From an uncultured Candidatus Saccharibacteria bacterium (GTDB taxonomy: Bacteria; Patescibacteriota; Minisyncoccia; Phycocordibacterales; Phycocordibacteraceae), in the NCBI GenBank assembly GCA_964434255.1, contig CAYSUL010000001.1, forward strand, positions 27,720-91,719: a DNA stretch of 64,000 nt. Direction: 5' to 3'. This document shows, piece by piece, positions 8,325 to 55,739 of this stretch. The position numbers and the translations under genes are program-made. The stretch's first letter is position 1; each line of letters opens with the position of its first letter. The notes under the pieces were generated by a model that was not told where the DNA came from, made no database searches, and saw only the letters and a program-made list of their open reading frames with translations.

Positions 8325-8362
8325 CTTCGCGTTCTCCCTCTAAATACGCTATAAACCTATAT

Positions 8363-9223
8363 ATGGAACGCACGATAGTCCTCTACCACGGCAGCTGCCC
8401 CGACGGGTTCGGCGGAGCGTACGCCGCCTGGAAGAAGTTCGGCGACACCGCGGAATATATTCCCCTGCACCGCGATGCCCCGCCTGCCGATAGCTTCGCG
8501 GGCGCACATCTCTATTTCATAGACTTCACATATACGAAGGACATCATGGATGCGTTCGTGGCGACTGCGGGGAGCGTCACCGTGCTCGACCACCATGACG
8601 GAGTCCAGGATGTCGTTGAATCGATGCCTGAATACCGGTATACCAGCGATCACTCTGGCGCGACCATCGCGTGGGAGTATTTCCACCCAGACACGCCTAC
8701 CCCGCTCCTCCTCCAGTACGTCGAGGACGACGACCTCTTCCGCTTTGCGCTCGCCGAGACACGAGCCGTCCTCTGCTACCTCACCATCCAGCCATATACC
8801 TTCGAGAGCTGGGACCGCATCGTCACGGAGCTCGAAGACATTTCTACCCGAACCCACGTTCTCGCACGCGCGAATATCTATGCCGAGTATTTCGAGCATC
8901 TCGCCAACCTCTCGGTAGAGAAGGCCGACCTTGTGGAGTTCGAGGGGCACCAAGTCTATTTCGCGACCGCGCATCCGCTCAAGCCACTGAAGTCGCTTGT
9001 GGGCAATCTGCTGGCCAAAAAGCACGGACCGTTCGCGCTCGTGGTCTCCGCCCACCCCAAGGGATACGGTGTCTCCATACGCGGTGACGGCTCCATAGAC
9101 GTCGCAGCCATAGCGGAGAAGTATGGCGGCAACGGCCACACCTCGTCTGCAGGTTTCGCTATCCCTGCTGGTAGTCCGGTTCCGTGGACCAAAGTACCTA
9201 AAGATGAAGCTCCTCGCGATTGA
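8363..9223 (+). CDS. DHH/DHHA1-family phosphoesterase (NrnA-like nanoRNase / pAp phosphatase)
   Basis: HGSCPDGFG, DHH (LDHHDG) and GGGH-type (GGNGHTSSAGF) motifs. Confidence 0.8.
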   Translation: MERTIVLYHGSCPDGFGGAYAAWKKFGDTAEYIPLHRDAPPADSFAGAHLYFIDFTYTKDIMDAFVATAGSVTVLDHHDGVQDVVESMPEYRYTSDHSGATIAWEYFHPDTPTPLLLQYVEDDDLFRFALAETRAVLCYLTIQPYTFESWDRIVTELEDISTRTHVLARANIYAEYFEHLANLSVEKADLVEFEGHQVYFATAHPLKPLKSLVGNLLAKKHGPFALVVSAHPKGYGVSIRGDGSIDVAAIAEKYGGNGHTSSAGFAIPAGSPVPWTKVPKDEAPRD

Positions 9224-22327: not shown

Positions 22328-22329
22328 CC

Positions 22330-22666
22330 TAGCGGACCCAGGTCTGATGATCGCTGCGTATCGCAAGATGCGTAGAGGAAAGTCCGAACACAGGCCGCAT
22401 TCGTGCGGCAGCACGGTAGCGGGTAACGCCCGTCCGCCGTAAGGCGCGAGGTGCGAACAGAGACGTCCGCGGCGAAAGCCAAGGAGGCCCTTCGGGGTCA
22501 GGCCCGCCGAGATGCGGGATTGAAACGGCTAAATCCTTACCACTGTGCAAGGCCGTGCCCTTCGGGGAGCGCCGCTCGAGGCTATCGGTAACGATAGTCC
22601 CAGATAGATGGTCATCGCTCGTGGTCTCCACGAGTACAGAATTCGGCTTATGGCCTGGATCCGCTA
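22330..22666 (+). ncRNA. rnpB: RNase P RNA, bacterial type A
   Basis: P4 strands AGGAAAGTCCGAAC and ACAGAATTCGGCTTA. P1 pairing tagcggacccaggtc / ggcctggatccgcta. Multiple GNRA/UUCG-capped helices. Confidence 0.85.
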
Positions 22667-22675
22667 TACATGAAA

Positions 22676-22700
22676 AGGCTCGCCGCGAGGCGAGTCTTTT
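22676..22700. terminator. terminator gctcgcc-gcga-ggcgag-TCTTTT
   Basis: Directly after rnpB. Shared with the convergent DUF192 gene. Confidence 0.7.
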
Positions 22701-23176
22701 CAATTCCCCTGGTACGAAGAGATATCGAGCTTCGTGCCAGTATCCCACCCATGATCCTTCGCATATCCGGCCCTGGTCTCGAGCGCGAACGAGGCGGGCA
22801 CCGCGGGAGCGAGTACGCTCGGGTAGCTAGCAGGAGAGACCGAGTGCTCGATGTGCACAATGGTCCCGTCGTCCGACAGCCAGACGATATCGATAGCGAA
22901 AAGCATGTCCTTCATCCAGAACCCGTGCTTCGCTGCCTCCTCGAATATGAAAAGCATGCCGTAGTCGTCCGCGATGTCCTTCCTTCCCGAGAGTCCCTGC
23001 ATCCGTTTCTCCTGGGTATCCGCGAGCTCTATCTCGCGCGGAAGCGTTTCCGCCTTGCTGACTACCACATCCGCGGCAGATGATTCCGCTGGCGCATGAA
23101 CACGGGTATAGATAAGGAGCGCGGCGAGTATGACGATTATGAGTGCGAGCCCAGCGATGAGGAGGCGGGTACGCAT
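22700..23176 (-). CDS. DUF192 domain protein
   Basis: 158 aa. N-terminal signal/TM plus DUF192-like core (GLSGRK, DIVWL). Confidence 0.7.
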   Translation of the reverse strand: MRTRLLIAGLALIIVILAALLIYTRVHAPAESSAADVVVSKAETLPREIELADTQEKRMQGLSGRKDIADDYGMLFIFEEAAKHGFWMKDMLFAIDIVWLSDDGTIVHIEHSVSPASYPSVLAPAVPASFALETRAGYAKDHGWDTGTKLDISSYQGN

Positions 23177-27200: not shown

Positions 27201-28000
27201 GGCGTTCCGCAATCTGTATCATCGATGGTGAGCTTGTACTTGAGACCTGCAGGGTTCTTTGCGGGAGTTCCGCCTACCTGCGCCCAGTTCTTCACGGTGA
27301 AGGCGAGGGTGTGGCTTCCCGCTCCGAGCTCCGCAGCGGAAATGAGTATCGTGTCCTCCTGACCTGCATGGAAGTTGTCTTCGTCGTTCGAGCTCCCGAT
27401 AGGATTCCCATCGAGCGTGACCGCGTACGAATTGTCCGCCGCAATAACGAGCGTACCGCCCGACGAGTCGTCCGTGATGGAGAAGGTCTTCGTGAATACC
27501 TCGGTGACGTCATTGACGGGGTCAGCGATAGGGTTCTCGCCCCATATCCATTTCGCCAGCACATCGACTACCGCGGTCCACCCCGCATTCAAGGGTGACA
27601 CCTCAACGGAGGCATCTCCTCCTTCGAGCGTCGTCGTGTCGCTTAGGATGACGCACTGCGGTCCTTCGTCTATAACAACGGCCGGTTCCACTACCAGTTC
27701 AGCAGCGCGTTCGAGTACCGGTTCTTCCGTCTCTTCTACTATCTCCTCCTCTACGGGAGGAACTACGCTTTCTTCAGGCGGCACGGGTGCTGCATCTACC
27801 GATGGAGTCGGCACCTGTTCTTCTGTCTCCGACACGACCTCTTCTACGACCTCGGTCTCCACCGTAGGAACGATATCGTTCGTCTGCGCGATGGCGATAA
27901 GAGGGAAGTTGGTCGCGACGAGTGCGAACATCAAAAGGCCAGCATTGAAAGCCGCAAAGGTTTTGCGGAGTGCCGGCATGCGAGCATCATTCTTTTTCAT
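24242..28000 (-). CDS. 1252-aa secreted/surface protein with duplicated ~150-aa modules and C-terminal peptidoglycan-binding domain
   Basis: Start taken at MKKNDARMPALRK with signal/TM. Two divergent internal module pairs. C-terminal PG_binding_1-like segment ATEVLELQGFLNEH...AVHAFQKEHW. Confidence 0.75.
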   Translation of the reverse strand: MKKNDARMPALRKTFAAFNAGLLMFALVATNFPLIAIAQTNDIVPTVETEVVEEVVSETEEQVPTPSVDAAPVPPEESVVPPVEEEIVEETEEPVLERAAELVVEPAVVIDEGPQCVILSDTTTLEGGDASVEVSPLNAGWTAVVDVLAKWIWGENPIADPVNDVTEVFTKTFSITDDSSGGTLVIAADNSYAVTLDGNPIGSSNDEDNFHAGQEDTILISAAELGAGSHTLAFTVKNWAQVGGTPAKNPAGLKYKLTIDDTDCGTPPPPQCVPGDAWAYAVEDSDQGLRKNGSAVLPARSNPSAALGASDGSFFSLGFGGSIVIEFDSYIPDSAGDDLLVQEVTNGIYPSETATVTVSQDGSTWFPLTEQAGNGAGGSTSLDVSETGLPWFRYVKLTDTTNANLHQNDADGFDLDAIKGMNGVCEEPEEEVDQCVLVSDTTTLEGGTASALVTFIHNSWTALIQSASWIWGEDPATDTVIGKTETFTKTFWLDGAVASSTLLIAADNGYTVELNGVEIGADPQEKNYTAAGQDVITIPAGDFNVGANTLVFTVDNFPLANGTYQTNPGGLLYKLTIDGTECDDTPPEQEMLKVYILKYLETANGTEQIVDGSGAPAFPMTSSWDAANLGAGSGSYSLAAPTYGATTSAMTSPADYATEETTDGSVVLPADAQCTPGKYRLVGYKTGTTLLEAENDEVSTTAPSFTDITSDRYVIVVNEDCDDANEEPDPTTLQVHIYKHLQDEESTGQIVDNANVPDFPMTATWTTANLNGGATTSGAYVLGNNHGGATFQHAANTALMDAPADYTTSEVTDGSVVVANGERCVADKYRLVGYKWGTSYADAVATTTITVAAPEFTDLTSDRYVIVVNEDCDDVLDDGEPTEPDEQTIVITGNTSAGENQLGWMFNRDTTTQSPFAFLLGNASIGSGSLYVEPIVNDYDGSNGNCKGGVDQTGCDKFIGELFLQEQIADIDSISYDFKIAAPDATVEEHFYMSVYANFGESSPTKFYDCRYSVVPVTGSTGAFTTVTFDPTQSYPVTTRTGAPGVASPYPCPASPAGMDALSTGSSTVRVIALNVGDTSGSDTGVGGYLDKVVVALTDLITTYDFEPTPIAPDDDTVTIASSGGGGGGSSKKKAAGAVLGATTDAACSALLSTFMRMGIANDATEVLELQGFLNEHMAAGLPLTGFFGAMTDAAVHAFQKEHWEDVLKPWFPYPAEGIHDADDSTGYVYKTTQWKINDIYCPDIAPFPPLP

Positions 28001-28260
28001 GGGTAATGGATTAAGTGCGCACGTGTATGAAGCGCTTGATAAAAATCCTGTTGCGCGAGCCCCTCGCGCCGAACTTCCCCGCATCCATAGAAAATAGATG
28101 CCGTACCATGTGTACCTAGCATGAATAGTGGCACTCGATATATGAGGCGTCAATGAAGTCAAGAACTGTTGACAACCTGTGGATATGCTCCAGGCTGCTG
28201 ATTCTGCATACTGAATCGACTAAAAGCCCGTAGCAATGCTACAGGCCTTTAGATTCGTTG

Positions 28261-41455: not shown

Positions 41456-41923
41456 CTAAGCGAGCTCACGGAGGTCGGCAAGCACTTCTTCTGCATGTTT
41501 TTCCGGCTTCACTCCCTCATACACCTTCAGTATGGTTCCGTCAGACCCTACAAGGAACGAAGTGCGGAATATTCCATCGTATTCACGGCCCATGAACTTC
41601 TTCCTTCCCCATACGTCGTATGCGTTCACTACTTTCCTGTCCTCGTCCGCAAGCAGCGGGAACATAAGACCATGCTTCTCCACGAACTTCTTGTGGCTCT
41701 TTACGCTATCGGCCGATATACCGAGCACCACTGCCTTGAGCTTCTTGAAATCAGGTTCCGCGTCGCGTATGGCGCACGCCTGCTTGGTACAGCCTGGCGT
41801 ATCGTCCTTCGGATAGAAATAGATGAGAACGGGCTTGCCGCGATAGCTTGAGAGCGTGTGCGGGGTGCCATCCTGGTCGAGAAGCGTAAAGTCCGGAGCC
41901 TGCGCTCCTACTTTCGGCATCAT
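41456..41923 (-). CDS. bcp: thiol peroxidase / peroxiredoxin Bcp
   Basis: FTPGCT peroxidatic cysteine motif. Start taken at MMPKVG. Confidence 0.85.
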   Translation of the reverse strand: MMPKVGAQAPDFTLLDQDGTPHTLSSYRGKPVLIYFYPKDDTPGCTKQACAIRDAEPDFKKLKAVVLGISADSVKSHKKFVEKHGLMFPLLADEDRKVVNAYDVWGRKKFMGREYDGIFRTSFLVGSDGTILKVYEGVKPEKHAEEVLADLRELA

Positions 41924-43068
41924 AGCTCCACCTCGTCGCTGCGGGAGAACGCGAAGCCGTACGCGATAGCGACTATCGCGCCGATAGCGGCAGCGGAGAG
42001 CACGAGTACGAACACCTTGCCCACGACCGGAATGATACCGACGAGATACAACACGAACATGCCGAGTACGGCGCCACGCCACGAGACGCCCTGTCGCTTG
42101 AAGAGGCCGCGCATGAGCGCTGCACCGGCGAGTATGCCTGCGTACAGATACCCAACGAGAAGAAGCGAGAGGTATGCGAGCAGGAGCAGGAGCGCGACCA
42201 CCGTTCCCACGAACGAGATGAGGAGCAGGATGATGAGCGCGGGAGTTGCGACCGTGACCGCGAACCCAAGAAGGGCGAACAGTACGAAATGCCTTGGGGA
42301 ACGTGCGAGCACGCGCTCGGTCACCCGGCTCGTGAAGCGCGGGAAGAGACCGGCAAGGAGGCCGGCGGCGATAACTGCAGCGATTACGCTCGCGACGAAG
42401 AAGACGCCCGCGCCTGCGATAGCGAACCGCTTCGCTTCTTCGACCGTCGGGAGGTATGCGGAAGCACCGGTGTACACCACTCCCCCATCGACCGCGGTCG
42501 ACGCAGGGACTCCTGCCTGCTGCGGTGCATTGTATTTAAGTACACCATGGATGCGCGTGCCCTCTCCGAGCGTAAGGCGTTCCGAGGCGACCACCTCAAC
42601 GTCGCCCAGGTATTCACCCGCCAGATACACGTCACCCCCATAGATGACCACGGGACCGGTAGCGCCATTCTCGAGGCGAACGCTCGCGCCTGCGATGCGT
42701 GTCGAGGAGGCGGTACCAGTGACTACGACAGAGCCTCCTGCAAGCATGAGGTCGCCACCGATAGTGTCCTCGATGATGATGCGTCCACCAGCTGCGCGCA
42801 CATCGCCCGCGACCGGCCGCTTGAGGTCAATCGTTCCCCCTGCAAGCGTCGCGTCGCCCGCGACCGCTGCTGAAAGGGTGAGTGTTCCTCCTGCCGCAAG
42901 AACGTCCCCACCAATCGGTGCGGATACGTTCACGTCGGTACCTGTCAGGTACGCGTTATCCGCTATGGGCTCCGAGATGACTAGTGTACGGTCGGTACGC
43001 ACCGTGGACGCCAGCGTTATGCCCGGAATGACGAGGAGGAGTGCAAGCGCTAGCAGTCGACGCTTCAT
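41920..43068 (-). CDS. bactofilin-like (polymer-forming cytoskeletal) repeat protein with C-terminal multi-TM region
   Basis: Signal peptide. Repeated GGDV/AGG beta-helical motifs. About six C-terminal TM helices. Confidence 0.65.
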   Translation of the reverse strand: MKRRLLALALLLVIPGITLASTVRTDRTLVISEPIADNAYLTGTDVNVSAPIGGDVLAAGGTLTLSAAVAGDATLAGGTIDLKRPVAGDVRAAGGRIIIEDTIGGDLMLAGGSVVVTGTASSTRIAGASVRLENGATGPVVIYGGDVYLAGEYLGDVEVVASERLTLGEGTRIHGVLKYNAPQQAGVPASTAVDGGVVYTGASAYLPTVEEAKRFAIAGAGVFFVASVIAAVIAAGLLAGLFPRFTSRVTERVLARSPRHFVLFALLGFAVTVATPALIILLLISFVGTVVALLLLLAYLSLLLVGYLYAGILAGAALMRGLFKRQGVSWRGAVLGMFVLYLVGIIPVVGKVFVLVLSAAAIGAIVAIAYGFAFSRSDEVEL

Positions 43069-43072
43069 AGGT

Positions 43073-43546
43073 TCAGGATACCACAGGGCGTATGGGGGTG
43101 AGTTTTGCACGTCCGGGGGCGTGCCTTGCCCACAACCTAAGAGCAATAAGGCATATAAGGGCCGCTATGACCGCCGACGCGATGCAGTAGATGCACAACG
43201 CCTTGATGAGGGCGAACTGGATGAAGAGGAATGCTAAGGATGCAATGAGGCCGAGCACGCCGAGTACCGCGACCGCCTGGTAGAGCGGGTGGTGGGTGCG
43301 GACGAAGAGGATCGCGACAAGGACAAAAAGGAAGCAATAGAAGATGACGCCGTAGAGCGCGAGCGGCAGCCCGAAGAGCTTCGAGTAAGGACTCTGCGCA
43401 ACGATATTGCAGCCATCGAGCACCGCACCCACGTCGCAGAAGAGCGCAGCTCCCTGGAATGCAGAAAGAGTGAGGTACCACGCATCTGCTATGCCGAGGA
43501 ATGCGAGGACGAGCAATGTCACGAGTAGCCCGTTACGGGTGTTCAT
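43073..43546 (-). CDS. vitamin K epoxide reductase (VKOR) family protein
   Basis: Polytopic. CxxC CIYC in a TM helix plus loop cysteines. Confidence 0.8.
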   Translation of the reverse strand: MNTRNGLLVTLLVLAFLGIADAWYLTLSAFQGAALFCDVGAVLDGCNIVAQSPYSKLFGLPLALYGVIFYCFLFVLVAILFVRTHHPLYQAVAVLGVLGLIASLAFLFIQFALIKALCIYCIASAVIAALICLIALRLWARHAPGRAKLTPIRPVVS

Positions 43547-43598
43547 CAAGCTATCGTAGCCTGCGGACGTATGAGCGGCAAATGGGTATACTTGTGCC

Positions 43599-43994
43599 AT
43601 GGAACCGATGCCGCAGACGGATGAGGAGTGGCGCGAGAAGCTCTCGCCCGAAGAATACCGAGTGCTCCGGGAGCGCGAGACGGAGGCTCCTTTCTCGGGC
43701 GCGTACGTAGAGAATCATGAGGAGGGCGTATACCGCTGCAAAGCGTGCGGGAACCTCCTATTCACCTCTGACCAGAAGTTCGACTCGGGCACCGGCTGGC
43801 CATCGTTCACCGATCCTGCGGTGGCGGAGAACGTGGGCACGCGTCCCGACGACACATACGGCATGCACCGCACCGAGGTGTACTGCAAGAAATGCGACGG
43901 CCATCTGGGTCACGTATTCAATGACGGCCCAGCTGAAGCAGGCGGCAAGCGGTATTGCATCAATTCCGTCTGCCTAGCCTTCGAGAAGGAATAA
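43599..43994 (+). CDS. msrB: peptide-methionine (R)-S-oxide reductase MsrB
   Basis: SelR domain. Two CxxC zinc pairs. Catalytic RYCINS. Confidence 0.9.
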   Translation: MEPMPQTDEEWREKLSPEEYRVLRERETEAPFSGAYVENHEEGVYRCKACGNLLFTSDQKFDSGTGWPSFTDPAVAENVGTRPDDTYGMHRTEVYCKKCDGHLGHVFNDGPAEAGGKRYCINSVCLAFEKE

Positions 43995-44000
43995 CGAGTG

Positions 44001-44033
44001 AGGCACCATCCGTATCTGGTACGAATGGTGCCT
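44001..44033. terminator. hairpin aggcaccat...atggtgcct between convergent msrB and gcrA
   Basis: Perfect 9-bp stem. No T-run. Confidence 0.4.
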
Positions 44034-44039
44034 GAATCA

Positions 44040-44546
44040 CTAGATATATCGCTGGAGTGAACGGGCGAGCTCGTTCGTGCGAGTTCGCCTCTTGGTCTGC
44101 GCCGGTTGATACGCCACGCGAGCGTGCTCCAGGCAGTACGGCCCATCGTCCTGCCGCCTTCCGCAGAAAGTGAAGCCGTCGGTGAATGGGTCGCCGATAG
44201 GCCATTTGCACATGTGAGCGTCGAGCGTGAGGATGGTCGCCGTGCCCGGAGCTTCCTCGACATACTGCACCGGCGCCGGGATGGGCGCGGTGGCGACAAT
44301 CGGAGCAGGCTCAGCGACACGCCGACGTGCGACAGACGCTGCAGCCGGACGGGGCGAACGCGGTGCCTTGAACACGGGCCGGGCCGGTTTCGATGGCGTC
44401 GCACGACCCGAAAGCCCGAGCCGGTGGACTTTGCCGATGACAGCGTTGCGCGTCACGCCGCCCAACTGTTTAGCTATCTGGTCTCCAGAGAGACCGTCCT
44501 GCCAGAGCTTCTTGAGACTCTCTACGCGTTCGTCGGTCCAACCCAT
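44040..44546 (-). CDS. gcrA: GcrA-family cell-cycle transcriptional regulator
   Basis: N-terminus MGWTDERVESLKKLWQDGLSGDQIAKQLGGVTRNAVIGKVHRLGLSGR matches the GcrA DNA-binding domain almost residue for residue. C-terminal CKWPIGDP...FTFCG motif. Confidence 0.8.
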   Translation of the reverse strand: MGWTDERVESLKKLWQDGLSGDQIAKQLGGVTRNAVIGKVHRLGLSGRATPSKPARPVFKAPRSPRPAAASVARRRVAEPAPIVATAPIPAPVQYVEEAPGTATILTLDAHMCKWPIGDPFTDGFTFCGRRQDDGPYCLEHARVAYQPAQTKRRTRTNELARSLQRYI

Positions 44547-44673
44547 GATCTTCCCTTTCCCGCCGCTGGCGGTTCCGTGAGGAATGAATGTCTAGAAACT
44601 GCTTTCTCTTCCCTTCCGGAGCGGATTATATGACGCCTCGACAAATCGCTATCAACAGGAGCTAATGATGAGC

Positions 44674-45633
44674 TTAGGTGCAGCCCATCGTTGTCGCTCC
44701 GTCCTTCCTCATCCCTACGTTAGTTTCCGCATATCGTACATAGGTCTCGCCTTCCGCTTTCGTGAATATTGCGGTGACCGCGAGCCCGCAACGCACGCTC
44801 GGTTCCCAATACTGATCGAATACGAAATTGCCGAGGGAGTAATACACGCGGGTGCTGCCGATATCCTCCACCTCCCCCACAACATGCGAGTGCGTGCCGA
44901 TGATGAGGTCCGCTCCTGCGTTCGCGAATGCTCGTGCGAGCTCGCGTACTCGTACGGGTGGAGCGGTCTCATACTCATTTCCCCAATGCGCAAGCACGAT
45001 TACAGCGTCCGCACTCTGCACCGCGTCGCTTTCAAGCGCCTGGCGGGCACGCGCAGAATCCCCGCCCACGAAGTCGCTATACGAAACGAACGCGAGGCGC
45101 ACACCGTTCACCTCTTGTACTACCGGCTCGATAGAGTCTCCGGTCGGGTCGCCGATATACTCGATGCCTGCACCAGACAGGTATTTGGTGGTCGAGCGCA
45201 CGCCATCGGCTCCGAAGTCCTTGATATGGTTGTTGCCTATCGAGACGAGGTCGAAGCCGTAATCGAGCAGGAGCTTCCGTACGCTCGAGGCGAACGTGAA
45301 GCGCATGTTGGTAAGCTCTCCGATCTGGGTACCCTGCGACTGCGATAGGTTATCCGTTATCGGGCCTTCCAGGTTCCCGACGTTCATATCGGCTTCCGAC
45401 AGAAGCCGCTCGACGCCGCCGAGCACATGAGCATTCCCATTCCGCGCGAGCACGGTACGGATATACCGGTCGAACATCATATCGCCCACGAACAGGACCG
45501 TCGCGGTCTTTATCTCCTCTTTCTTCTGGAAGATCCTGGCTTGGCTAGTCTCTACCGTCTGTGAGCTGAGCATGAAAAGCGTGAGGCTGAACGCCCCAGC
45601 GAATATGAGGAGTATGGTTCCGACCCTCTTCAT
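44674..45633 (-). CDS. capA: CapA-family metallophosphatase (poly-gamma-glutamate synthesis-type)
   Basis: N-terminal TM. Calcineurin-like phosphoesterase motifs (GDMMFDR, GNNH). Confidence 0.75.
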   Translation of the reverse strand: MKRVGTILLIFAGAFSLTLFMLSSQTVETSQARIFQKKEEIKTATVLFVGDMMFDRYIRTVLARNGNAHVLGGVERLLSEADMNVGNLEGPITDNLSQSQGTQIGELTNMRFTFASSVRKLLLDYGFDLVSIGNNHIKDFGADGVRSTTKYLSGAGIEYIGDPTGDSIEPVVQEVNGVRLAFVSYSDFVGGDSARARQALESDAVQSADAVIVLAHWGNEYETAPPVRVRELARAFANAGADLIIGTHSHVVGEVEDIGSTRVYYSLGNFVFDQYWEPSVRCGLAVTAIFTKAEGETYVRYAETNVGMRKDGATTMGCT

Positions 45634-45655
45634 ACACTGATGATACAGTAGGCGG

Positions 45656-46195
45656 ATGAAGGAGGTAGCGATGTTCGGTGGAGGATGCTTCTGGTGTACG
45701 GAAGCGGTATTCAAGATGATGAAAGGAGTGACTGCGGTCGCGCCGGGCTACGCAGGCGGGCACACGAAGAACCCGACCTATGAACAGGTATCGACTGGAG
45801 AGACCGGCCATGCCGAGGTCATCCGTATAGAATACGACCCCGCGGTGGTAGCGTATCGCACGCTCCTCACCATATTCTTCGCTTCGCATGATGCGACGCA
45901 GTTGAATCAGCAGGGCAATGATATAGGCACCCAGTACCGCTCTGCGGTGTTCCCTACGACGCCTAAGCAAAACATTGAGACCGAAGCGTTCATTCGCGAG
46001 CTCGAAGCCTCGAGCACGGACGGCGACCCGATAGTAACCACCATAGAAGAGAACGCGGTCTTCTATCCTGCCGAGGAGTACCACAGGGACTATTTCGAGA
46101 ACCATCCCGAGCAGGCGTACTGCCAGATAGTGATAGCGCCGAAGCTCCAGAAGGTGCAGAAGGTGTACGCAGAGCTTCTCTCGCAACCTTCCTAG
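45656..46195 (+). CDS. msrA: peptide-methionine (S)-S-oxide reductase MsrA
   Basis: GGGCFWC active site. Confidence 0.9.
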   Translation: MKEVAMFGGGCFWCTEAVFKMMKGVTAVAPGYAGGHTKNPTYEQVSTGETGHAEVIRIEYDPAVVAYRTLLTIFFASHDATQLNQQGNDIGTQYRSAVFPTTPKQNIETEAFIRELEASSTDGDPIVTTIEENAVFYPAEEYHRDYFENHPEQAYCQIVIAPKLQKVQKVYAELLSQPS

Positions 46196-46310
46196 GCGGG
46201 CGAGTGTTCTAGGAGATAGGAAGATCTTTGACAGCCGGAACATCGTCGCGCGCAGAAATGCGAGCGAGGTCCAACATACGCGCCTTTACTCGAACTCTAA
46301 CGCAACGAAT

Positions 46311-46556
46311 ATGACTATATTCCGCGCTCTCGGTCTCTTGGTGCTTATCTTGGTCCTGCAATCGATGGTTCCTGCTATATGGAGCGAACTCGAGGCTACT
46401 ATCATCGCGTTCTTGCACGGTGCACGCATATCAGCTGGCGTCGCGACGAGTATTGCTGCTTCTGCTGGAAGCACCAACCTATCCGTCCCGCTCTCCGCTA
46501 TGCCCTTCACCACCCCGCCCTTCCCCCTTCCGCAAGCCGCGTATACCAACCTCTAA
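46311..46556 (+). CDS. possible small secreted protein (81 aa)
   Basis: N-terminal signal-like helix and Pro-rich C-terminus. Atypical third-position usage and no RBS. Two tandem hairpins follow. Confidence 0.3.
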   Translation: MTIFRALGLLVLILVLQSMVPAIWSELEATIIAFLHGARISAGVATSIAASAGSTNLSVPLSAMPFTTPPFPLPQAAYTNL

Positions 46557-46574
46557 CTCTCTCCCGTCGCCTAA

Positions 46575-46640
46575 GCCAATTCCTCGGGATTGGCTTTCGT
46601 ATTTCCATAAGAAGAAAGCCGCTCCAGGGAGCGGCTTTCT
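46575..46640 (+). terminator. two tandem hairpins (gccaattcc-tcg-gggattggc; agaaagccgctcc-aggga-gcggctttct)
   Basis: The second is a perfect 13-bp stem followed by TCTTG. Confidence 0.55.
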
Positions 46641-46785
46641 TCTTGCATCAGACGAATTGTTTACGGCTTAGTTGTAAAAATGCTACATCACAAGTGATGG
46701 AGGTAAGCCGTAAACAGCTCGTCTCATACGCACGATTACATAAAAGATATCATATATCCTTTTGCAAGTCAACAGCCCCCCGGTA

Positions 46786-46805
46786 GGCTCGGACGGTGTT
46801 GGAAC
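46786..46805 (+). repeat. L-type repeat copy E, degenerate solo copy (GGCTCGGACGGTGTTGGAAC)
   Basis: 15/19 identity to the L core. Precedes the candidate sRNA region. Confidence 0.45.
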
Positions 46806-47005
46806 CTTGATTTGTCTTAGAATCTCTATACTCTAACCTCGGGTGTTCGGGCAACACAATTGGCTAGCCCAAACGTGGCCATTAGTTCCTGCGCAGGCAG
46901 GAGCTGGTCTCAGAAGTAGCGATTAGCTACCACAAGGTGACGAACTCAATACCTGAGAAACGCTGACAGAGATCATTCCTCGACTTTTGGTGCTCGAACA
47001 CTTCC

Positions 47006-47032
47006 AGACCACTTCATGTGGTCTTTCTTTTT
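47006..47032 (+). terminator. terminator agaccac-ttcat-gtggtct-TTCTTTTTG
   Basis: Perfect 7-bp stem plus a T-run, 13 nt before repeat L-B. Confidence 0.8.
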
Positions 47033-47044
47033 GCGTACTAAAGT

Positions 47045-47073
47045 CTGCTGGGGGTCTGGGACGATGTTGGAAC
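47045..47073 (+). repeat. L-type repeat copy B (CTGCTGGGGGTCTGGGACGATGTTGGAAC)
   Basis: Core sits inside a GGGGTC...GACCCC hairpin (47051-47090). Confidence 0.7.
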
Positions 47074-47102
47074 TTCACTAATACGACCCCATGACCCGAT
47101 AG

Positions 47103-47130
47103 TTGATAAATATAGACATTTGTGTTATAA
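47103..47130 (+). promoter_or_regulatory. AT-rich promoter TTGATA-N16-TTATAA for the module B gene
   Basis: -35 at 47103-47108, -10 at 47125-47130. AGGAG RBS at 47152-47156, 7 nt before the ATG. Confidence 0.45.
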
Positions 47131-47163
47131 AGACAAAAGTGATGCATCGCTAGGAGACGTCTA

Positions 47164-47571
47164 ATGGAAGAGGTTCCCTCTCGCTCTTTTCTGGTCTTCA
47201 GGACCTTTCCTGACACCTGGGAATTGCCGGGTGAATACAGCAATGTACTTGAGAAGCATCTTTGTTCTATCCCAACGGAACTAATACTTCCGTGGCCGGT
47301 CAACATTTGCCCCAGAAATATTGGGGATGAGATCTGCTTCTCGAGCATGTTGACCCCGTATGCCGACTTCGTGGTGGAGAAGTTTGAGTACATCTACAGT
47401 CGCAAGAAAGGGGTTACTCAGTGGGTTCGTTTAAGACCTACTGAGGACGGCATGGACTTTAACCTCAACACGCTGCTTCACGCAGCCGATGAGGGGTTCC
47501 TGTTCGAATCTGAAGTCCCAATTTCACGAGTGTTGTACGACGCCGGCCTTCGACACACGGCCGTCGGATGA
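47164..47571 (+). CDS. hypothetical protein (cargo of module B), ~50% GC
   Basis: 135 aa. Strong RBS. Lower GC than host genes. No recognisable domain. Confidence 0.55.
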   Translation: MEEVPSRSFLVFRTFPDTWELPGEYSNVLEKHLCSIPTELILPWPVNICPRNIGDEICFSSMLTPYADFVVEKFEYIYSRKKGVTQWVRLRPTEDGMDFNLNTLLHAADEGFLFESEVPISRVLYDAGLRHTAVG

Positions 47572-47616
47572 CATTGCAGCAGCCCTCACACTTCGATGAT
47601 GTGGGGGCTTTAATAT

Positions 47617-47642
47617 TGCTGGCAGACTAGGGATCGAACCTA
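47617..47642 (+). repeat. R-type repeat copy 2 (TGCTGGCAGACTAGGGATCGAACCTA)
   Basis: tRNA-3'-end-like. Its CTA is the stop codon of the convergent metallopeptidase gene. Confidence 0.7.
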
Positions 47643-48043
47643 TTTGTCCCCTCCTCCTCCCGACCCTGCACATGCGGCTCATCCATGCCGAAATAGTGGC
47701 CGAGCTCATGCCAGATAGTTTCGCGTATCACGATGCGTATCGCATCCCGGAATTCCCTATCCATCTCTTCTGCCTCTTCGATGATAGGTAGCCGATAGAG
47801 CGTGATGGTGTCCGGCATGGTGCCACCAATGCCATACTCGCTGCCGCGCTCCGAGAGCGGAACGCCATGATACAGACCGAGCAGGGTCTCTTCGTGTTCG
47901 AGCCCCTCTTCCTTCCTAACTTCTTCGCTCAGCTCGTCCTCGATCAGAAGCGCGACGTTCTTCACCGACCGCTCGAATCGCTCCGGCACCTTCTTCCACT
48001 CCTCTGCGGCTATCGCCTCGAATTCACGTATATCCATGTCCAT
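47627..48043 (-). CDS. zincin-like metallopeptidase-family protein (DUF1025-like)
   Basis: 138 aa with HExxH motif WHELGHY. Confidence 0.75.
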   Translation of the reverse strand: MDMDIREFEAIAAEEWKKVPERFERSVKNVALLIEDELSEEVRKEEGLEHEETLLGLYHGVPLSERGSEYGIGGTMPDTITLYRLPIIEEAEEMDREFRDAIRIVIRETIWHELGHYFGMDEPHVQGREEEGTNRFDP

Positions 48044-48061
48044 AGTTTATACTCCATACAC

Positions 48062-48724
48062 ATGAATATCCGCCACGCCAAGATAAGTGAGCAGCTCGGG
48101 GTCGTAGGCCTGCTCGTCACTATCGGTGCACTCGTCCTCATCGCGTTCTTCGTCGATATGGAAGCGCTCAAGGCGTATGTGCTCGCATCAGGCCCGTTCG
48201 CACCGCTCGTATTCATACTCCTGAAAGCATCGACGGTCATCATCGCCCCGCTATCGGGCGCCCCGCTCTACCCTATCGTCGGACTCTTCTTCGGGTTCTG
48301 GCCCGGCTTCCTCTACGTGCTCATCGGTGACTTCCTCGGGTACACGGGCGCGTTCTTCCTCGCCCGCAAGTTCGGGTACCCCTTCGTGCGCAAGATGATA
48401 GCCGGGAACGAGCACGGTCTCCTGTCCCGCGTCGTATCGCACGTGGGCACGGTGAAGGGCTTCATCCATATGTGCCTCACTTGCTTCGCGCTTCCCGAAC
48501 TCATCTCGTACGGCACTGGCCTCTCCCGTCTCCCCTACCCGATATTCATCTCCGTATTGCTTCCGCTCTCGGCAGTGATGTCCGCGACGCTCGTCCTCTT
48601 CGGATCGCTCCTCGACTTCTCCGAGGGCTCGCTCCTCATCACCATCGGTATGCCGCTCGTTGGCGGCGTCATCATCGCTATCGGCGGATACCTCTTCCTT
48701 CGCGGAGTGAACGAGAAGGTCTAG
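48062..48724 (+). CDS. TVP38/TMEM64 (DedA-like) family membrane protein
   Basis: Start at internal ATG MNIRHAK. About six TM helices. Conserved GDFLGY-like segment. Confidence 0.75.
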   Translation: MNIRHAKISEQLGVVGLLVTIGALVLIAFFVDMEALKAYVLASGPFAPLVFILLKASTVIIAPLSGAPLYPIVGLFFGFWPGFLYVLIGDFLGYTGAFFLARKFGYPFVRKMIAGNEHGLLSRVVSHVGTVKGFIHMCLTCFALPELISYGTGLSRLPYPIFISVLLPLSAVMSATLVLFGSLLDFSEGSLLITIGMPLVGGVIIAIGGYLFLRGVNEKV

Positions 48725-48912
48725 GAAGCCGCTTCTTCGCTTAGAGGAGCAGGTTGCGTCATCATCTCATCGAGTTCGGCCTTGATGGCGTTCTCGAATG
48801 CCTTCATCTGGTACCTGGTCCCGAGCCAGAACCCAAGCGCGAACACTAGGACGAAGAGCACGATAGCGACTGCCTGCGAGTACCAGTTCACAGTGTTCCA
48901 TTCGATTTTCAT
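48721..48912 (-). CDS. hypothetical 63-aa membrane protein
   Basis: Single TM helix. No clear RBS. Confidence 0.35.
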   Translation of the reverse strand: MKIEWNTVNWYSQAVAIVLFVLVFALGFWLGTRYQMKAFENAIKAELDEMMTQPAPLSEEAAS

Positions 48913-48935
48913 ATCTTGGAGTATAGCGTAATAGC

Positions 48936-48962
48936 AAAACGACCTCCTAAGAGGTCGTTTTT
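48936..48962. terminator. bidirectional terminator aaaacgacctc-ctaa-gaggtcgtttt
   Basis: Perfect stem with A-run and T-run flanks. Confidence 0.8.
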
Positions 48963-48982
48963 GCGTAGGACAGCTTCGTGGG

Positions 48983-49708
48983 TTACTTCAACTCTGCGTC
49001 TATCAGCGCCGCGACCGATGCGAACGGCTGCGCGCCCGCGAGAAGCGTCTTGCCGATTATCATCGCCGGGGTGCCAGTGACGCCCAGCGCAGAACCTTCC
49101 GTACGGTCAGCTGCGATAGCTTCCGAGTACTTAGCGCGGTTGGATGCAACGAGCGCCGCAACGCGGTCCCCATCGATGCCAGCTACGCCGCGGGTAAGCG
49201 TATCGACGCTCTTCTCATCGCCGAAGCCTCCATGCTCCTCATCCTGCGCGACGAACATCGCCTTGTACCATTCGTAATAGAGCTCGGGATGCGCCTCCCA
49301 TACAGCACGGGAGTAGAGCGCGCCTGATTCTGAATCAGGCCCGAGGAACTGGAAGTCCTTGACGAGGATCTTCACCTTTCCGGTCGCGACATACGTGTCG
49401 TATATCTGCACCATCGCTGTCTGCTCGAACTGCTTGCAGAACGGGCACTGGTAATCGAACCAGTACGCCATGACGACCGGTGCGTTCTTATCGCCCAGGA
49501 ACGGCCCGTTATCCTTCACGTCCTTGATGTTAACCGCCTTCGCTACCTGCTCTCCAGGCTGGGAAGGTAGCGCATCTCCGCGACCGAATGCGAACGCACC
49601 TGCGATGATAAGCGCGCCCACGATGACCGCGATAGGGGTCATGTACTTCTCCAAGAACGAACCAGTATCTGCTTTTTCCATATAAGTATTACGCCCTTTT
49701 ATTTCCAA
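48983..49708 (-). CDS. DsbA-like thiol:disulfide oxidoreductase, membrane anchored
   Basis: CPFC active site in a thioredoxin fold. N-terminal TM helix. TTG start per ORF track; ATG 49681 is an alternative. Confidence 0.8.
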   Translation of the reverse strand: MEIKGRNTYMEKADTGSFLEKYMTPIAVIVGALIIAGAFAFGRGDALPSQPGEQVAKAVNIKDVKDNGPFLGDKNAPVVMAYWFDYQCPFCKQFEQTAMVQIYDTYVATGKVKILVKDFQFLGPDSESGALYSRAVWEAHPELYYEWYKAMFVAQDEEHGGFGDEKSVDTLTRGVAGIDGDRVAALVASNRAKYSEAIAADRTEGSALGVTGTPAMIIGKTLLAGAQPFASVAALIDAELK

Positions 49709-52885: not shown

Positions 52886-54670
52886 CTAGCGGCGATTCTT
52901 CGAACGATCGCTCTCGGTGAGCCCCTGCTTACGCAGACGCACCGAAAGTGGCGTTATCTCGAGATACTCGTCATCCGTCATGACCTCAAGACCGCGCTCG
53001 ATGCTGAGAGTGAACGCGGGGACCAGGTTGATGGCTTCATCCATACCGGACGAACGGACGTTGCTCTGGTTCTTTCCCTTGGTAGGGTTCACGACCATCT
53101 CTTCTCCCTTCGAAGTGTTGCCCACCACCATACCTTCATAGACTTCGGTAGCCGGGGTGATATAGAGGACGCCGCGCTCCTGCATGCCCCAAAGCGCATA
53201 GCCGAGCGCCTTGCCGGTTGCCATGGAAATCATGGAGCCCACCTGGCGCTTCTTTATCTCGCCTGCGTACGGCTTGAAGCCGAGCACGCGCGTTGAAAGT
53301 ATTCCCTCGCCCTTGGTGTCGACGACGAACTGGTTGCGATACCCAAGAAGGCCGCGGGTAGGACCTTCGAGTGTGAGGCGCACCGTGTCGCCGTGCTGCA
53401 CAAGGTTCATGAGCACGAATGCGCGAGTACCGAGGCGCTCGATGATGGAGCCCTGGAACTCGGTCGGAGTATCGATAGTGACTTCCTCGTATGGCTCGAG
53501 CTTCTGGCCCTCTTCCTCGCGGATGATTACCTGCGGCTGGGAGACCTGCATCTCGTATCCTGCGCGGCGCATGTTCTCGAGGAGGATGGCGATGTGGAGC
53601 TCGCCGCGGCCCGAGACCTTGAAGGCGTCAGGGGACACGAAGTCCACCTTGAGTCCCACGTTCACTTCGAGCTCGCGCTCGAGGTATTCGCGAAGCTGGC
53701 GGCTCGTCACGTACTTCCCTTCGCGGCCCGCGAACGGTGAATTATTCACGAGGAAGTTCACGGTGATGGTCGGCTCATCAATAGCGATTGCTGGCATCGG
53801 CTCCATAGCAGGGTCGGTAGTGATGGTCTCTCCGATGAATACGTCAGGAAGACCTGCGACGATCACGATGTCGCCTGCGGACGCTTCCGTAGCTTCAACG
53901 CGCTCAAGACCCTTGAAGGTGAATATCTTCGTCGTCTTTCCGTTACGCGCAGTGCCGTCAGGCTTCTTCACGATGACGTTCTGTCCCGGAGTGATGGTTC
54001 CTTCGTACACGCGGCAGATGGCGAGGCGGCCGAGGAAGTTATCGTACGCGAGATTGAATGACTGGAGCTTGAGGGGCTTGGCCTCGTCTCCTGCTGCTGA
54101 AGCTGCAGGCACGTTCTCAAGAACGGTATCGAGAAGCGGCTCGAGGTTCACGCGCTCGTCGTCGAGCTTCTTCATAGCAACGCCCTCGCGACCGATGGCA
54201 TATACCACTTTGAAGTCGGACTGCTCATCGCTTGCTCCGAGCTCGAGGAAGAGTTCGAGCACCTGCTCTTCAGCACGATCGGGATCTGCTGCTGGCTTGT
54301 CTATCTTATTCAGAACGACGATAGGCTTGAGCCCGAGCTCGAGTGACTTCTTGAGTACGAAACGGGTCTGCGGCATGGGGCCTTCCTGCGCGTCGACGAT
54401 GAGGAGCACGGAGTCGATGGAACGGAGCACACGCTCAACTTCCGAACCGAAGTCGGAGTGGCCTGGGGTGTCGACGATGTTTATCTTCGTTCCCTTGTAC
54501 TCCACCGAGGCGTTCTTGGAGTAGATGGTGATGCCGCGCTCGTGCTCGAGTGCGTTACTGTCCATGGACACGCCAGCAGCTGCCGCGCCGGTTTCCTTGA
54601 GGATGGCGTCGGTCAGCGTGGTCTTTCCGTGGTCCACGTGGGCGATGATGGCGATATTCCGGGTTTCCAT
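52886..54670 (-). CDS. typA: translational GTPase TypA/BipA
   Basis: AIIAHVDHGKTTL, DTPGH, NKID G-motifs. 594 aa. Confidence 0.95.
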   Translation of the reverse strand: METRNIAIIAHVDHGKTTLTDAILKETGAAAAGVSMDSNALEHERGITIYSKNASVEYKGTKINIVDTPGHSDFGSEVERVLRSIDSVLLIVDAQEGPMPQTRFVLKKSLELGLKPIVVLNKIDKPAADPDRAEEQVLELFLELGASDEQSDFKVVYAIGREGVAMKKLDDERVNLEPLLDTVLENVPAASAAGDEAKPLKLQSFNLAYDNFLGRLAICRVYEGTITPGQNVIVKKPDGTARNGKTTKIFTFKGLERVEATEASAGDIVIVAGLPDVFIGETITTDPAMEPMPAIAIDEPTITVNFLVNNSPFAGREGKYVTSRQLREYLERELEVNVGLKVDFVSPDAFKVSGRGELHIAILLENMRRAGYEMQVSQPQVIIREEEGQKLEPYEEVTIDTPTEFQGSIIERLGTRAFVLMNLVQHGDTVRLTLEGPTRGLLGYRNQFVVDTKGEGILSTRVLGFKPYAGEIKKRQVGSMISMATGKALGYALWGMQERGVLYITPATEVYEGMVVGNTSKGEEMVVNPTKGKNQSNVRSSGMDEAINLVPAFTLSIERGLEVMTDDEYLEITPLSVRLRKQGLTESDRSKNRR

Positions 54671-54774
54671 ATGACGAATCTGGCTTGCGAATAAAATAAA
54701 AAGGCCCCACGGGCAATTGAAAATAGAATACCTTTATATAGATGAAGCGTCAATCATCCTCAGGCGACGAATCC

Positions 54775-54806
54775 CTGCTGCTGAGAGTCCGGGACGATGT
54801 TGGAAC
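54775..54806 (+). repeat. L-type repeat copy C (CTGCTGCTGAGAGTCCGGGACGATGTTGGAAC)
   Basis: Followed by a leader CTCTTATGCAATGCATGGTAGGTTCTGTCTAGAC, near-identical to the one after copy A. Confidence 0.7.
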
Positions 54807-54857
54807 TCTTATGCAATGCATGGTAGGTTCTGTCTAGACACATTCAGGAGAACGTTA

Positions 54858-55151
54858 ATGCCCTCAGGAAACCGAAAGCAGTGGTTGCTCGGGAGTGCTA
54901 CTCCCACATTCCCTGCACGCTTCTGCTCCACCTCTGAAGGAAGGCGGATGTTCCCGGACATTCTCCAAGATGCCTTCGGGCTCAAGAGCATCACAGGCTT
55001 TCATCGCTACGGACGAACGCTCGGTGCGATTATCCCCATCGAGGCCGTTCGGCTTCTCGCCGGCTATCCGGATGCGGTGGACGACGATACGAAGGTCCGC
55101 ATTCGGAACGCAGCCCTGAACCTCCTCGAGGGACAAGGTGATCTACGTTGA
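54858..55151 (+). CDS. hypothetical protein, possible Phd/YefM-like antitoxin fold (cargo of module C)
   Basis: AGGAGA RBS 6 nt upstream. KSITGFHRYGRTLGAIIPIEAVRLL resembles the antitoxin beta-strand region. No toxin partner seen. Confidence 0.45.
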   Translation: MPSGNRKQWLLGSATPTFPARFCSTSEGRRMFPDILQDAFGLKSITGFHRYGRTLGAIIPIEAVRLLAGYPDAVDDDTKVRIRNAALNLLEGQGDLR

Positions 55152-55191
55152 TGGAAGAACCTCACACTCCGCGCCCTGAAAGCGCGGAGTT

Positions 55192-55221
55192 CTTGCTGAG
55201 GGTCTGGGACGATGTTGGAAC
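55192..55221 (+). repeat. L-type repeat copy D (CTTGCTGAGGGTCTGGGACGATGTTGGAAC)
   Basis: Starts 41 nt after the module C gene. Boundary of the AT-rich islet. Confidence 0.7.
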
Positions 55222-55223
55222 TC

Positions 55224-55706
55224 TTACACTCCGATTTGAGGAACCGCGCCCGCCATATACAGAAACATATAAATCAGGAGGACAATGAAAAAACCGATGG
55301 CAAGAAGTTTTCTATTCATTTCTTTACTTTGTACAAACCAGATATGCTTCCAAAATTTATCGTTAGCCCTTTTTGAGAGAAGAACTATCAATCCAAGCAC
55401 AATGGACAGAAACGCAACTACCGGAAGTATGGCTACCAATGCAAGACCCAAAAAACTCAGTGGAGGATAGTTACTTACAATCAGACCTGCACTCAAGAAC
55501 ATTACTCCAAGCAGAAGAGACCGTGCAGGATTTAGATAGCGATAATACCAATAATCTTTCCCGAAACTATCGTCACCTGATTCTCCCTCTTTAGCCGTTA
55601 AATCTGATGTCCACTCCTTATAGAATTTTCTTGAGAAAAACATTGCAAAGCCATAATAGATAGCAGCCACGCCAGTTGCAATTAAGAAGAGTGGAAACCA
55701 GGTCAT
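55224..55706 (-). CDS. hypothetical polytopic membrane protein in ~40% GC islet
   Basis: 160 aa, about four TM helices. The last 8 codons read into the sequence just after repeat L-D. Confidence 0.5.
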   Translation of the reverse strand: MTWFPLFLIATGVAAIYYGFAMFFSRKFYKEWTSDLTAKEGESGDDSFGKDYWYYRYLNPARSLLLGVMFLSAGLIVSNYPPLSFLGLALVAILPVVAFLSIVLGLIVLLSKRANDKFWKHIWFVQSKEMNRKLLAIGFFIVLLIYMFLYMAGAVPQIGV

Positions 55707-55739
55707 ATAAGAAGTATATCGCCTGCAGGATGAGTCCGT

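Follow-up and report, generated by a model that had tools for sequence, protein, structure and literature searches.

In the literature (e.g., PMC7987155), GcrA is regarded as a regulator of the cell cycle and of epigenetic control that is a hallmark of Alphaproteobacteria and of certain phages that infect them. Here, we analyzed a gcrA gene in a 64,000-nt stretch of DNA (the window; all coordinates are positions within it) from an uncultured Candidatus Saccharibacteria bacterium (assembly GCA_964434255.1, contig CAYSUL010000001.1), a member of the Candidate Phyla Radiation (CPR). This gene, hereafter the window copy, forms a single-gene insert between a PGA_cap gene and msrB, and the locus contains the following features, in which L010 denotes a related CPR contig described below.

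43995–44673, no strand assigned: whole single-gene insert of 679 nt (upstream region, gcrA and hairpin), bounded by the PGA_cap and msrB stop codons.
44040–44546, minus strand: gcrA coding sequence, 168 amino acids, ATG to TAG (open reading frame; matches to PF07750, NF050816 and PDB 7ye1_G).
gcrA product: DNA-binding domain 1–45; Pro/Ala/Arg-rich linker ~46–99; sigma70-interacting zinc finger ~100–151; basic tail 152–168.
44481–44486, minus strand: codons for Gly21-Asp22, replacing the near-invariant Ala21-Ser22 (comparison with close and viral GcrAs).
44547–44673, minus strand: upstream non-coding region of 127 nt, with blocks common to the window and L010.
44650–44655 and 44625–44630, minus strand: promoter-like TTGATA and TATAAT, separated by a 19-nt spacer and ending 78 nt before the ATG.
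44649–44658, minus strand: upstream block CTGTTGATAG, kept in L010.
44636–44645, minus strand: upstream block TTTGTCGAGG, kept in L010.
44567–44576, minus strand: upstream block GGAACCGCCA, kept in L010.
44553–44563, minus strand: upstream block GCGGGAAAGGG, purine-rich and ribosome-binding-site-like, kept in L010.
43996–44038, no strand assigned: hairpin between the convergent gcrA and msrB (folding energy, inverted repeat).
44674–45633, minus strand: PGA_cap (CapA-like, PF09587), left flank and synteny anchor.
43599–43994, plus strand: msrB (SelR domain, PF01641), right flank, convergent with gcrA.

Membership of the product in the GcrA family is certain. The protein matched Pfam PF07750 with 187.6 bits (cut-off 26.9) over model positions 1–154 of 155, and aligned end to end with Caulobacter crescentus GcrA as represented in the cryo-EM entry PDB 7ye1, chain G (251 bits, phmmer); the family assignment made in the preliminary description of this DNA was thus borne out. 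The NCBIfam equivalog model NF050816, "cell cycle sigma 70 cofactor GcrA", gave 277.2 bits, marginally under its strict cut-off of 280, so that equivalog status (same function) was formally just missed. Over its first 45 residues, the protein agrees with C. crescentus GcrA at 40 positions (phmmer alignment), in line with the near-identical N-terminus noted before, and the CKWPIGDP motif reported in the C-terminal part was confirmed and lies inside an intact zinc finger (C-X14-C-X9-C-X2-H, formed by C113, C128, C138 and H141). An antisense open reading frame (ORF) of 175 amino acids (44106–44633, plus strand) is longer than gcrA and would be favoured by longest-ORF picking; we rejected it as a gene and regard it as an artefact of high GC.

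The window protein was compared with the residue lists of the structural papers (PMC5887438; PMC9976885), the first of which defines the base-contact, N6-methyladenine (m6A)-pocket and backbone-contact residues of GcrA. The base-reading and m6A-pocket residues R33, N34, I37, G38, H41 and R42, and also K39, are all identical in the window copy. Two residues of the DNA-binding domain that contact the phosphate backbone, A21 and S22 (PMC5887438), are altered (A21G and S22D), and the Asp at position 22 plausibly lowers non-specific DNA affinity. The sigma contacts established by mutagenesis in C. crescentus (K119, W120, D124, G129, F130, F132, Y142 and Y151) are all conserved, their equivalents in the window copy being K114, W115, D119, G124, F125, F127, Y137 and Y146, and the basic patch of the C-terminal tail is retained.

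To assign the host, the adjacent PGA_cap gene was used as an anchor and searched against one genome per GTDB species. Its relatives with at least 38% identity were Patescibacteria/Paceibacterota/Kaiserbacteria-type metagenome-assembled genomes (MAGs), one of which carries a doubtful "Pseudomonadales" label, and Nitrospirota were represented by two MAGs only at 36–37% identity. The best match, with 87% identity, was found on a 640-kb contig (L006), the flanking proteins of which are 87–98% identical to those of the window, and the order MsrA-PGA_cap-MsrB-VKOR-DUF8173-Bcp is kept across the related contigs L006–L010. With relatives of the adjacent gene being CPR down to 38% identity, the window is, as had been proposed, part of a CPR and not of an alphaproteobacterial genome. 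FtsZ, MurJ, ValRS, LepA, GroES/EL, RNase J, YceG and RNase P RNA in the window fit CPR as well, and many window ORFs gave no Pfam match. The earlier statement that the tRNAs lack an encoded CCA held for six of the seven window tRNAs and failed for the remaining one.

The identity of ~80% to Caulobacterales GcrA is unexpected in CPR, and it would be accounted for if a Caulobacterales gcrA fragment had been mis-joined into a CPR contig during assembly or binning. A branch in the assembly graph was also hinted at by four Logan contigs (L001, L003, L004 and L005), which all stop inside msrB (43776/43778). These stops are not at the gcrA border, and suggest strain variation or a k-mer shared with a different organism. 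However, five single-run Logan assemblies (SRR13723392-97) encode exactly the window GcrA protein, and their contigs match window positions 43776–48343 at 99.6–100% nucleotide identity and span both gcrA junctions. Because these independent assemblies reproduce the junctions, a chimera, which the preliminary description had considered, is excluded. The same layout recurred in two further CPR genomes, which come from separate studies of other locations and are each represented by several assemblies, and the gcrA arrangement of the L010-type locus is repeated in independent assemblies. Moreover, the GC content at third codon positions (GC3) of the window copy is host-like: at 0.70, it lies, as does its codon usage, inside the range of the window genes (0.64–0.79), and the CPR copies span 0.64–0.71, whereas copies of the donor type described below have 0.75–0.97 (0.89–0.97 in two of three). 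The non-coding DNA on both sides of gcrA is likewise CPR-specific. An artefact of assembly or binning is thus effectively refuted, and these results showed that gcrA is physically part of a CPR chromosome.

We then compared the insertion site among related CPR genomes. In L006, L007, L008 and L009, PGA_cap and msrB abut or overlap and gcrA is lacking; in L006, the two genes overlap by their stop codons. Because both L006 and the more distant L007–L009 show this arrangement, the empty site represents the ancestral state. By contrast, L010, which derives from Patescibacteria H51-bin099_1 of Hainich groundwater, has gcrA at this position, and the insert has the borders seen in the window. A third carrier, Parcubacteria bacterium C7867-008 from the Hanford aquifer (GCA_001189215.1), was found in a search with the L010 protein; its gcrA is convergent with msrB, which is followed by VKOR, the DUF8173 membrane protein and Bcp, and the locus has no PGA_cap upstream of gcrA. 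Thus, msrB is the constant neighbor in all three gcrA-bearing CPR genomes, and the neighborhood is conserved in related genomes in that the same msrB slot is occupied in two of them besides the window. The window GcrA shares 74–75% identity with the H51 and C7867-008 copies, and the flanking proteins share 55–85% (H51) and 50–80% (C7867) with those of the window. The gene is therefore not a one-off and has been inherited partly vertically within a small CPR group; a broad, vertically inherited non-alphaproteobacterial clade, which had been considered beforehand, was not found.

The Gly21-Asp22 pair was found solely in the window copy, in its 99% twin (P0001) and in L010. The other 228 close GcrAs lack it (Ala21 in ~100% and Ser22 in 100%), as do all 79 viral homologues with an aligned N-terminus, and the C7867-008 copy retains A21/S22. 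A degenerate DNA probe for the corresponding GLSGDQIAKQ signature retrieved only the L010 contig again from the metagenome collection and nothing from viral contigs. Since the flanks group as ((window, L006), L010), L006 has lost gcrA. We prefer a single insertion beside msrB followed by losses. The part of this scenario that concerns the window and L010 is well supported by the shared flanks and by G21/D22, whereas C7867-008 may have undergone a second transfer or an allele replacement. The locus has also taken up other insertions, as illustrated by an additional ORF in H51-bin099 that lies between msrA and PGA_cap, has no Pfam match and has no counterpart in the window or L006.

L010 8754–9971, plus strand (L172 7694–8911): the additional H51-bin099 ORF, 405 amino acids.

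With respect to the source of the gene, horizontal acquisition from Alphaproteobacteria, as first suggested, was borne out, the nearest relatives being chromosomal gcrA genes of Caulobacterales. Beyond the 99% twin, the nearest proteins show 79–82% identity to the window copy, and the named ones among them are from Phenylobacterium. Three of the nearest genes (P0003, P0011 and P0125) lie on high-GC contigs in the canonical argD-argF, ABC-2 ... gcrA-xseA-DUF2093-M23 context. A further one, P0123, has the same ABC-2 neighbor, a contig GC of 0.69 and a gcrA GC3 of 0.97, and its product is 85–88% identical to the L010 and C7867-008 copies. A phage or mobile element that infects CPR and carries gcrA as cargo would be an obvious vehicle, given that viral contigs commonly carry GcrA homologues (IMG/VR contains 120 confirmed relatives), and the preliminary description had raised a phage-borne origin. 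Such an origin was not borne out. The best of 80 viral homologues reach only 60–62% identity to the window copy, compared with 79–82% in a canonical chromosomal context, which argues for a Caulobacterales chromosome and not a known phage as the donor. In addition, the G21/D22 signature does not occur on viral contigs; neither an integrase nor a phage gene, target-site duplication, terminal (inverted) repeat or tRNA was found beside the 679-nt insert; and the neighbors are conserved CPR housekeeping and redox genes. A CcrM-like methyltransferase stands beside gcrA in 15 viral loci and in none of the CPR loci. We thus consider transport as phage or mobile-element cargo highly improbable. As a separate observation, the IMG/VR gcrA contigs L097, L123–L126, L133 and others encode a CcrM-like N6-adenine methyltransferase within ~5 kb of gcrA, which looks like a phage-borne reader-plus-writer pair.

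To characterize the fate of the gene after its acquisition, proportions of nonsynonymous (pN) and synonymous (pS) differences were determined. Between the window and L010, gcrA showed a pS of 0.66, a synonymous divergence (dS) of ~1.6 and a dN/dS of ~0.13, and the flanking genes showed a pS of 0.68–0.79. With a pS near that of the flanks and a low dN/dS, gcrA has diverged roughly together with its flanks under purifying selection, which has kept it intact in no fewer than two divergent CPR species, and probably in three. The rates differed between domains. The pN of the DNA-binding domain was 0.05–0.07 in all comparisons, equal to the level among Caulobacterales, whereas that of the sigma-interacting domain was 0.21 between CPR copies and 0.044 between two Caulobacterales; the latter domain changes 2–5 times faster, at a pN/pS of ~0.3. 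The zinc-loop length varies as well (X9 in the window, X8 in L010 and X10 in C7867-008). Every CPR copy has changes of its own at sites with 92–100% invariance in Caulobacterales, those of the window copy being P74R, R94Q, G109D, K153R and R165Q. The Asn of L010 at the position of C. crescentus G129, which also differs in C7867-008, was rejected as a disruptive change, as N, S and G all occur there in Caulobacterales.

The sequence around the coding region also bears on whether the gene is maintained. The window and L010 have retained the upstream blocks in spite of saturation at synonymous sites, and they share a TATAAT/TATACT element 19 nt past TTGATA; this upstream DNA gave no alignment with the upstream regions of Caulobacterales gcrA genes. 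We propose that the TTGATA/TATAAT element is a putative promoter, with a predicted transcription start ~70 nt ahead of the ATG. The hairpin between gcrA and msrB has a predicted folding energy of -25.3 kcal/mol (z -6.1), and its L010 counterpart (-28.6 kcal/mol, z -6.3) shows compensatory substitutions. This hairpin is likely a bidirectional transcription terminator; it has no T-run, and a terminator scan of the insert accordingly gave no match. A 5' stem-loop upstream of the ATG was not significant (z 0.0 and +1.5). A non-functional relic of transfer awaiting deletion would fit the clean loss from the closest relative L006 and the fact that no partner genes were found. It seems very unlikely, however, considering that the frame is open in three divergent genomes despite saturated synonymous sites, that dN/dS is ~0.13 with a near-invariant DNA-binding domain, and that both the upstream blocks and the compensated hairpin are conserved. 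The neighbors of gcrA form a conserved oxidative-damage and disulfide cluster (41456–49708) that encodes the Bcp peroxiredoxin, VKOR, MsrB, MsrA and a DsbA-like thioredoxin. This redox-repair cluster fits a CPR lineage of oxic habitats; for C7867-008, a cytochrome bo3 oxidase and an ATP synthase have been reported (Nelson and Stegen 2015).

As GcrA of C. crescentus reads methylated GANTC, the distribution of such sites was analyzed. A two-fold depletion of GANTC by dinucleotide shuffling was rejected, since the control palindromes CTNAG and TCNGA and the gcrA-less L006 were equally depleted, and this null model was replaced by synonymous-codon shuffling. The observed/expected ratio (O/E) of GANTC in the window was 0.87 under an order-3 Markov model and 0.85 when synonymous codons were shuffled, which is mid-range among palindromes of the same form; in two Caulobacterales loci, it was 0.58 (Markov) and 0.22–0.45 (mononucleotide model). 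Intergenic DNA holds 23.6% of the GANTC sites and makes up 19.2% of the sequence. These values gave no clear support for the co-option with an orphan N6-adenine methyltransferase that the preliminary description had suggested. The extended YGAKTCG consensus was depleted in coding DNA (10 observed vs. 25.1 expected, z -3.5), its two forms being the most depleted among 16 flank variants; since the gcrA-less L006 has the same site density as the window, this depletion is only a weak hint. Other sites were also avoided in window coding regions, as estimated by synonymous-codon shuffling for CTNAG (O/E 0.48, z -6.4) and most strongly in the case of GATC (85 observed vs. 265 expected, O/E 0.32, z -14). 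This avoidance suggests pressure from GATC and DdeI-like CTNAG restriction systems rather than from GANTC.

The window gcrA is a real, domesticated horizontal acquisition, for which we infer the following mode of action in CPR. The account that we favor, and to which we assign a moderately good probability, is that the gcrA of a Phenylobacterium-like Caulobacterales was captured by oxic-groundwater Parcubacteria/Paceibacteria and that its product is still a GANTC-type reader docking on sigma. In the proposed scenario, a Parcubacteria/Paceibacteria lineage would have taken gcrA from the donor chromosome, and the gene would have arrived as, or been reshaped into, a 679-nt single-gene cassette. 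This cassette has a CPR-specific upstream region and a terminator-like hairpin and is wedged between the convergent PGA_cap and msrB. Because constraint on the DNA-binding domain equals that in Caulobacterales and the base- and methyl-pocket residues are kept, GcrA would still be a sequence-specific reader of the GANTC/YGAKTCG type with m6A pockets. The protein would most likely dock on the primary sigma factor via its CCCH zinc finger and thereby modulate transcription initiation in CPR. The faster evolution of the sigma domain and the changes in loop length in L010 and C7867-008 suggest either re-fitting to a CPR sigma factor or partial relaxation.

Several observations weigh against this account. 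As to the partners, the sigma70 surface bound by GcrA consists of region 1.2/2.1 plus a lineage-specific non-conserved region of alphaproteobacterial sigma70, as described in the structural literature, and the CPR sigma factor may lack this non-conserved region. No sigma-factor gene was detected by Pfam, motif and tblastn searches of the 64-kb window and ~1.3 Mb of related CPR loci, and no CcrM-like methyltransferase was found in the same sequences. The methyltransferase search consisted of Pfam on ~40 window ORFs, a regular expression for the DPPY motif and tblastn with a CcrM probe, and covered ~64 kb of the window genome besides the related loci; the probe works, since it picked up the methyltransferases in the 15 viral gcrA loci. 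The GANTC avoidance or intergenic enrichment typical of Caulobacterales was not seen in the window. With regard to the cassette, the spacer of the promoter-like element is, at 19 nt, non-canonical, and a strict consensus promoter scan of the insert yielded no match for this reason. With regard to the history, gcrA is dispensable in one lineage, since L006, the closest relative, has lost it. C7867-008 and the gcrA-less L007–L009 are equally far from the window, and the gcrA of C7867-008 is compositionally foreign (GC3 0.70 vs. 0.43 +/- 0.04 in its neighbors, z 6.6). Furthermore, neighbor-joining (NJ) protein trees did not recover CPR monophyly (12 of 100 and 0 of 60 bootstrap replicates); L010 and C7867-008 joined a Phenylobacterium-like subgroup (P0122–P0127), and the window copy was placed elsewhere. 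More than one transfer, or an allele replacement, is thus possible. The conflict stems from positions with two or three states, at which Caulobacterales are themselves polymorphic, and the branch of the window copy is long, so that homoplasy is a sufficient explanation; we took the NJ tree to be uninformative and not to prove that the copies arose separately.

The contrast between the two domains could also be read as a loss of the sigma link, with GcrA, for example, repressing transcription, associating with the nucleoid or sensing DNA that is methylated or foreign while its sigma domain decays. The near-invariant DNA-binding domain (pN 0.05–0.07), with changes accumulating in the linker, sigma domain and tail, the zinc-finger-loop indels in two of the three CPR copies, and the potential lack of the non-conserved region of the binding surface in CPR sigma would all be expected in this case. 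However, the window copy has kept its zinc ligands and all sigma contacts validated by mutagenesis, the pN/pS of the sigma domain is ~0.3 and not 1, none of the CPR copies is truncated after the DNA-binding domain, and the G129-equivalent site varies naturally (S, N, G) in Caulobacterales. We consider a loss of the sigma link unlikely, although it is the alternative to which we give the most weight.

The identity of the donor raises another possibility, namely that CPR living on Caulobacterales hosts use a host-derived GcrA against or with the host and not on CPR genes. The donor is specifically a Phenylobacterium-like Caulobacterales, and all sigma70 and methyl-GANTC contacts are kept though the genome shows no GANTC signature and has no methyltransferase in reach. 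Moreover, phiCbK-like phages encode a GcrA that has been proposed to alter the replicative state of the host (PMC3556154). Repeated flow of DNA from Caulobacterales to CPR would fit the tree conflict, in that it would explain why CPR copies are closer to Phenylobacterium GcrAs than to each other, and it would also explain the un-ameliorated copy of C7867-008. Conversely, GcrA has no signal peptide or recognizable secretion tag, its N-terminus being the DNA-binding domain, and no delivery system was found near gcrA. The sigma domain drifts in the CPR copies (X8/X9/X10; pN 0.21 vs. 0.044), which is the opposite of what would be expected for a protein still aimed at the almost invariant alphaproteobacterial sigma70. 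We also know of no host association for this CPR clade. We therefore regard a host-directed function as rather improbable, and the same applies to its variants, in which GcrA would perturb S-phase transcription of the host or recognize host-type methylated GANTC DNA that has been taken up. That gcrA marks a physical association between Parcubacteria and Caulobacterales, GcrA being either a delivered effector that would upset the timing of S-phase and division gene expression in the host, as with phiCbK-type phages, or a reader of host-type m6A-GANTC in DNA uptake, is a slightly more doubtful proposal still. Taken together, we prefer the account in which GcrA remains a DNA reader that docks on sigma within the CPR cell.

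The presence of gcrA under purifying selection in CPR shows that a sigma-factor cofactor is portable across phyla and can be retained, which raises the question of its target beside a very different primary sigma factor. The specific donor, a Phenylobacterium-like member of the Caulobacteraceae, provides a testable lead to the host or ecological partner of this CPR clade. In addition, three carriers, one recent loss and several empty sites constitute a natural experiment on the indispensable portions of GcrA, in which the DNA-binding domain has so far proved fixed and the sigma-binding domain malleable.

Several other features of the window were recorded. A bacterial class A RNase P RNA (22334–22666, plus strand) scored 120.3 bits against a gathering score of 100, and is overlapped by a spurious minus-strand ORF of 139 amino acids (22329–22748). 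A conserved membrane protein of 382 amino acids (41920–43068, minus strand), the orthologue of which at L172 11456–12604 matches Pfam DUF8173, contains Gly/Asp/Val/Ala-rich repeats ("GGDV..AGG") and has a GC content at second codon positions (0.69) above that at first positions (0.49). Its gene has the most atypical codon usage in the window, yet is 97% identical in L006 and syntenic across the clade. Two lower-GC stretches (46200–47860 and 54670–55710; ~0.52 vs. ~0.58) contained no convincing ORFs or Pfam matches and may be other foreign or non-coding segments; an ORF of 160 amino acids at 55224–55706 has a GC3 of only 0.38. Four large minus-strand ORFs with host-like GC3 matched no Pfam family at E <=1e-3 (1306 amino acids, 24242–28162; 552, 8357–10015; 395, 5415–6602; 392, 308–1486), and are typical CPR "dark" proteins.

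Finally, we compared the window copy with known GcrA systems. In the literature library that was searched, no paper linking GcrA with Patescibacteria or CPR was found, nor any for the SRA run numbers, and the report of the C7867-008 genome makes no mention of GcrA (Nelson and Stegen 2015). Phage GcrAs (phiCbK-like and IMG/VR) belong to the same Pfam family and provide a precedent outside alphaproteobacterial chromosomes and for use by a parasite, and of the 79 viral homologues whose N-terminus could be aligned, 60 have the R-N-I-G-K-H-R contact set; phage GcrAs differ in showing 32–62% identity, in having no G21/D22 and in the methyltransferase next to gcrA in 15 loci. Within CPR, the H51-bin099_1 GcrA shares the msrB slot, G21/D22 and the non-coding flanks with the window copy, and differs in species and in its X8 loop. 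The C7867-008 GcrA shares the msrB slot, and differs in species, in its X10 loop, in A21/S22, in the lack of PGA_cap and in its foreign composition. The Phenylobacterium-like gcrA genes (P0003, P0011, P0123 and P0125) are the nearest sequences and the probable donor type, from which the window copy differs in its CPR flanks, its CPR-range GC3 and its faster change outside the DNA-binding domain. The best-characterized relative, C. crescentus GcrA (PDB 7ye1/7ye2, 5yix and 5yiv/5yiw/5z7i), is a sigma70 cofactor that reads m6A-methylated GANTC, and the two proteins are alike in full-length architecture, base- and methyl-pocket residues, K39, zinc ligands and validated sigma70 contacts. In contrast to C. 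crescentus GcrA, the window copy resides in a CPR bacterium whose sequenced relatives have genomes well below 1 Mb, and it differs by A21G, S22D, P74R, R94Q, G109D, K153R and R165Q. It also occupies the PGA_cap/msrB slot behind a different upstream region, with neither the canonical alphaproteobacterial gcrA neighborhood nor an evident CcrM/CtrA/DnaA cell-cycle circuit at the window locus. Thus, rather than a new kind of system, the window copy represents a known family in an unexpected phylum, for which GcrA annotations in two Patescibacteria MAGs are already present in databases.

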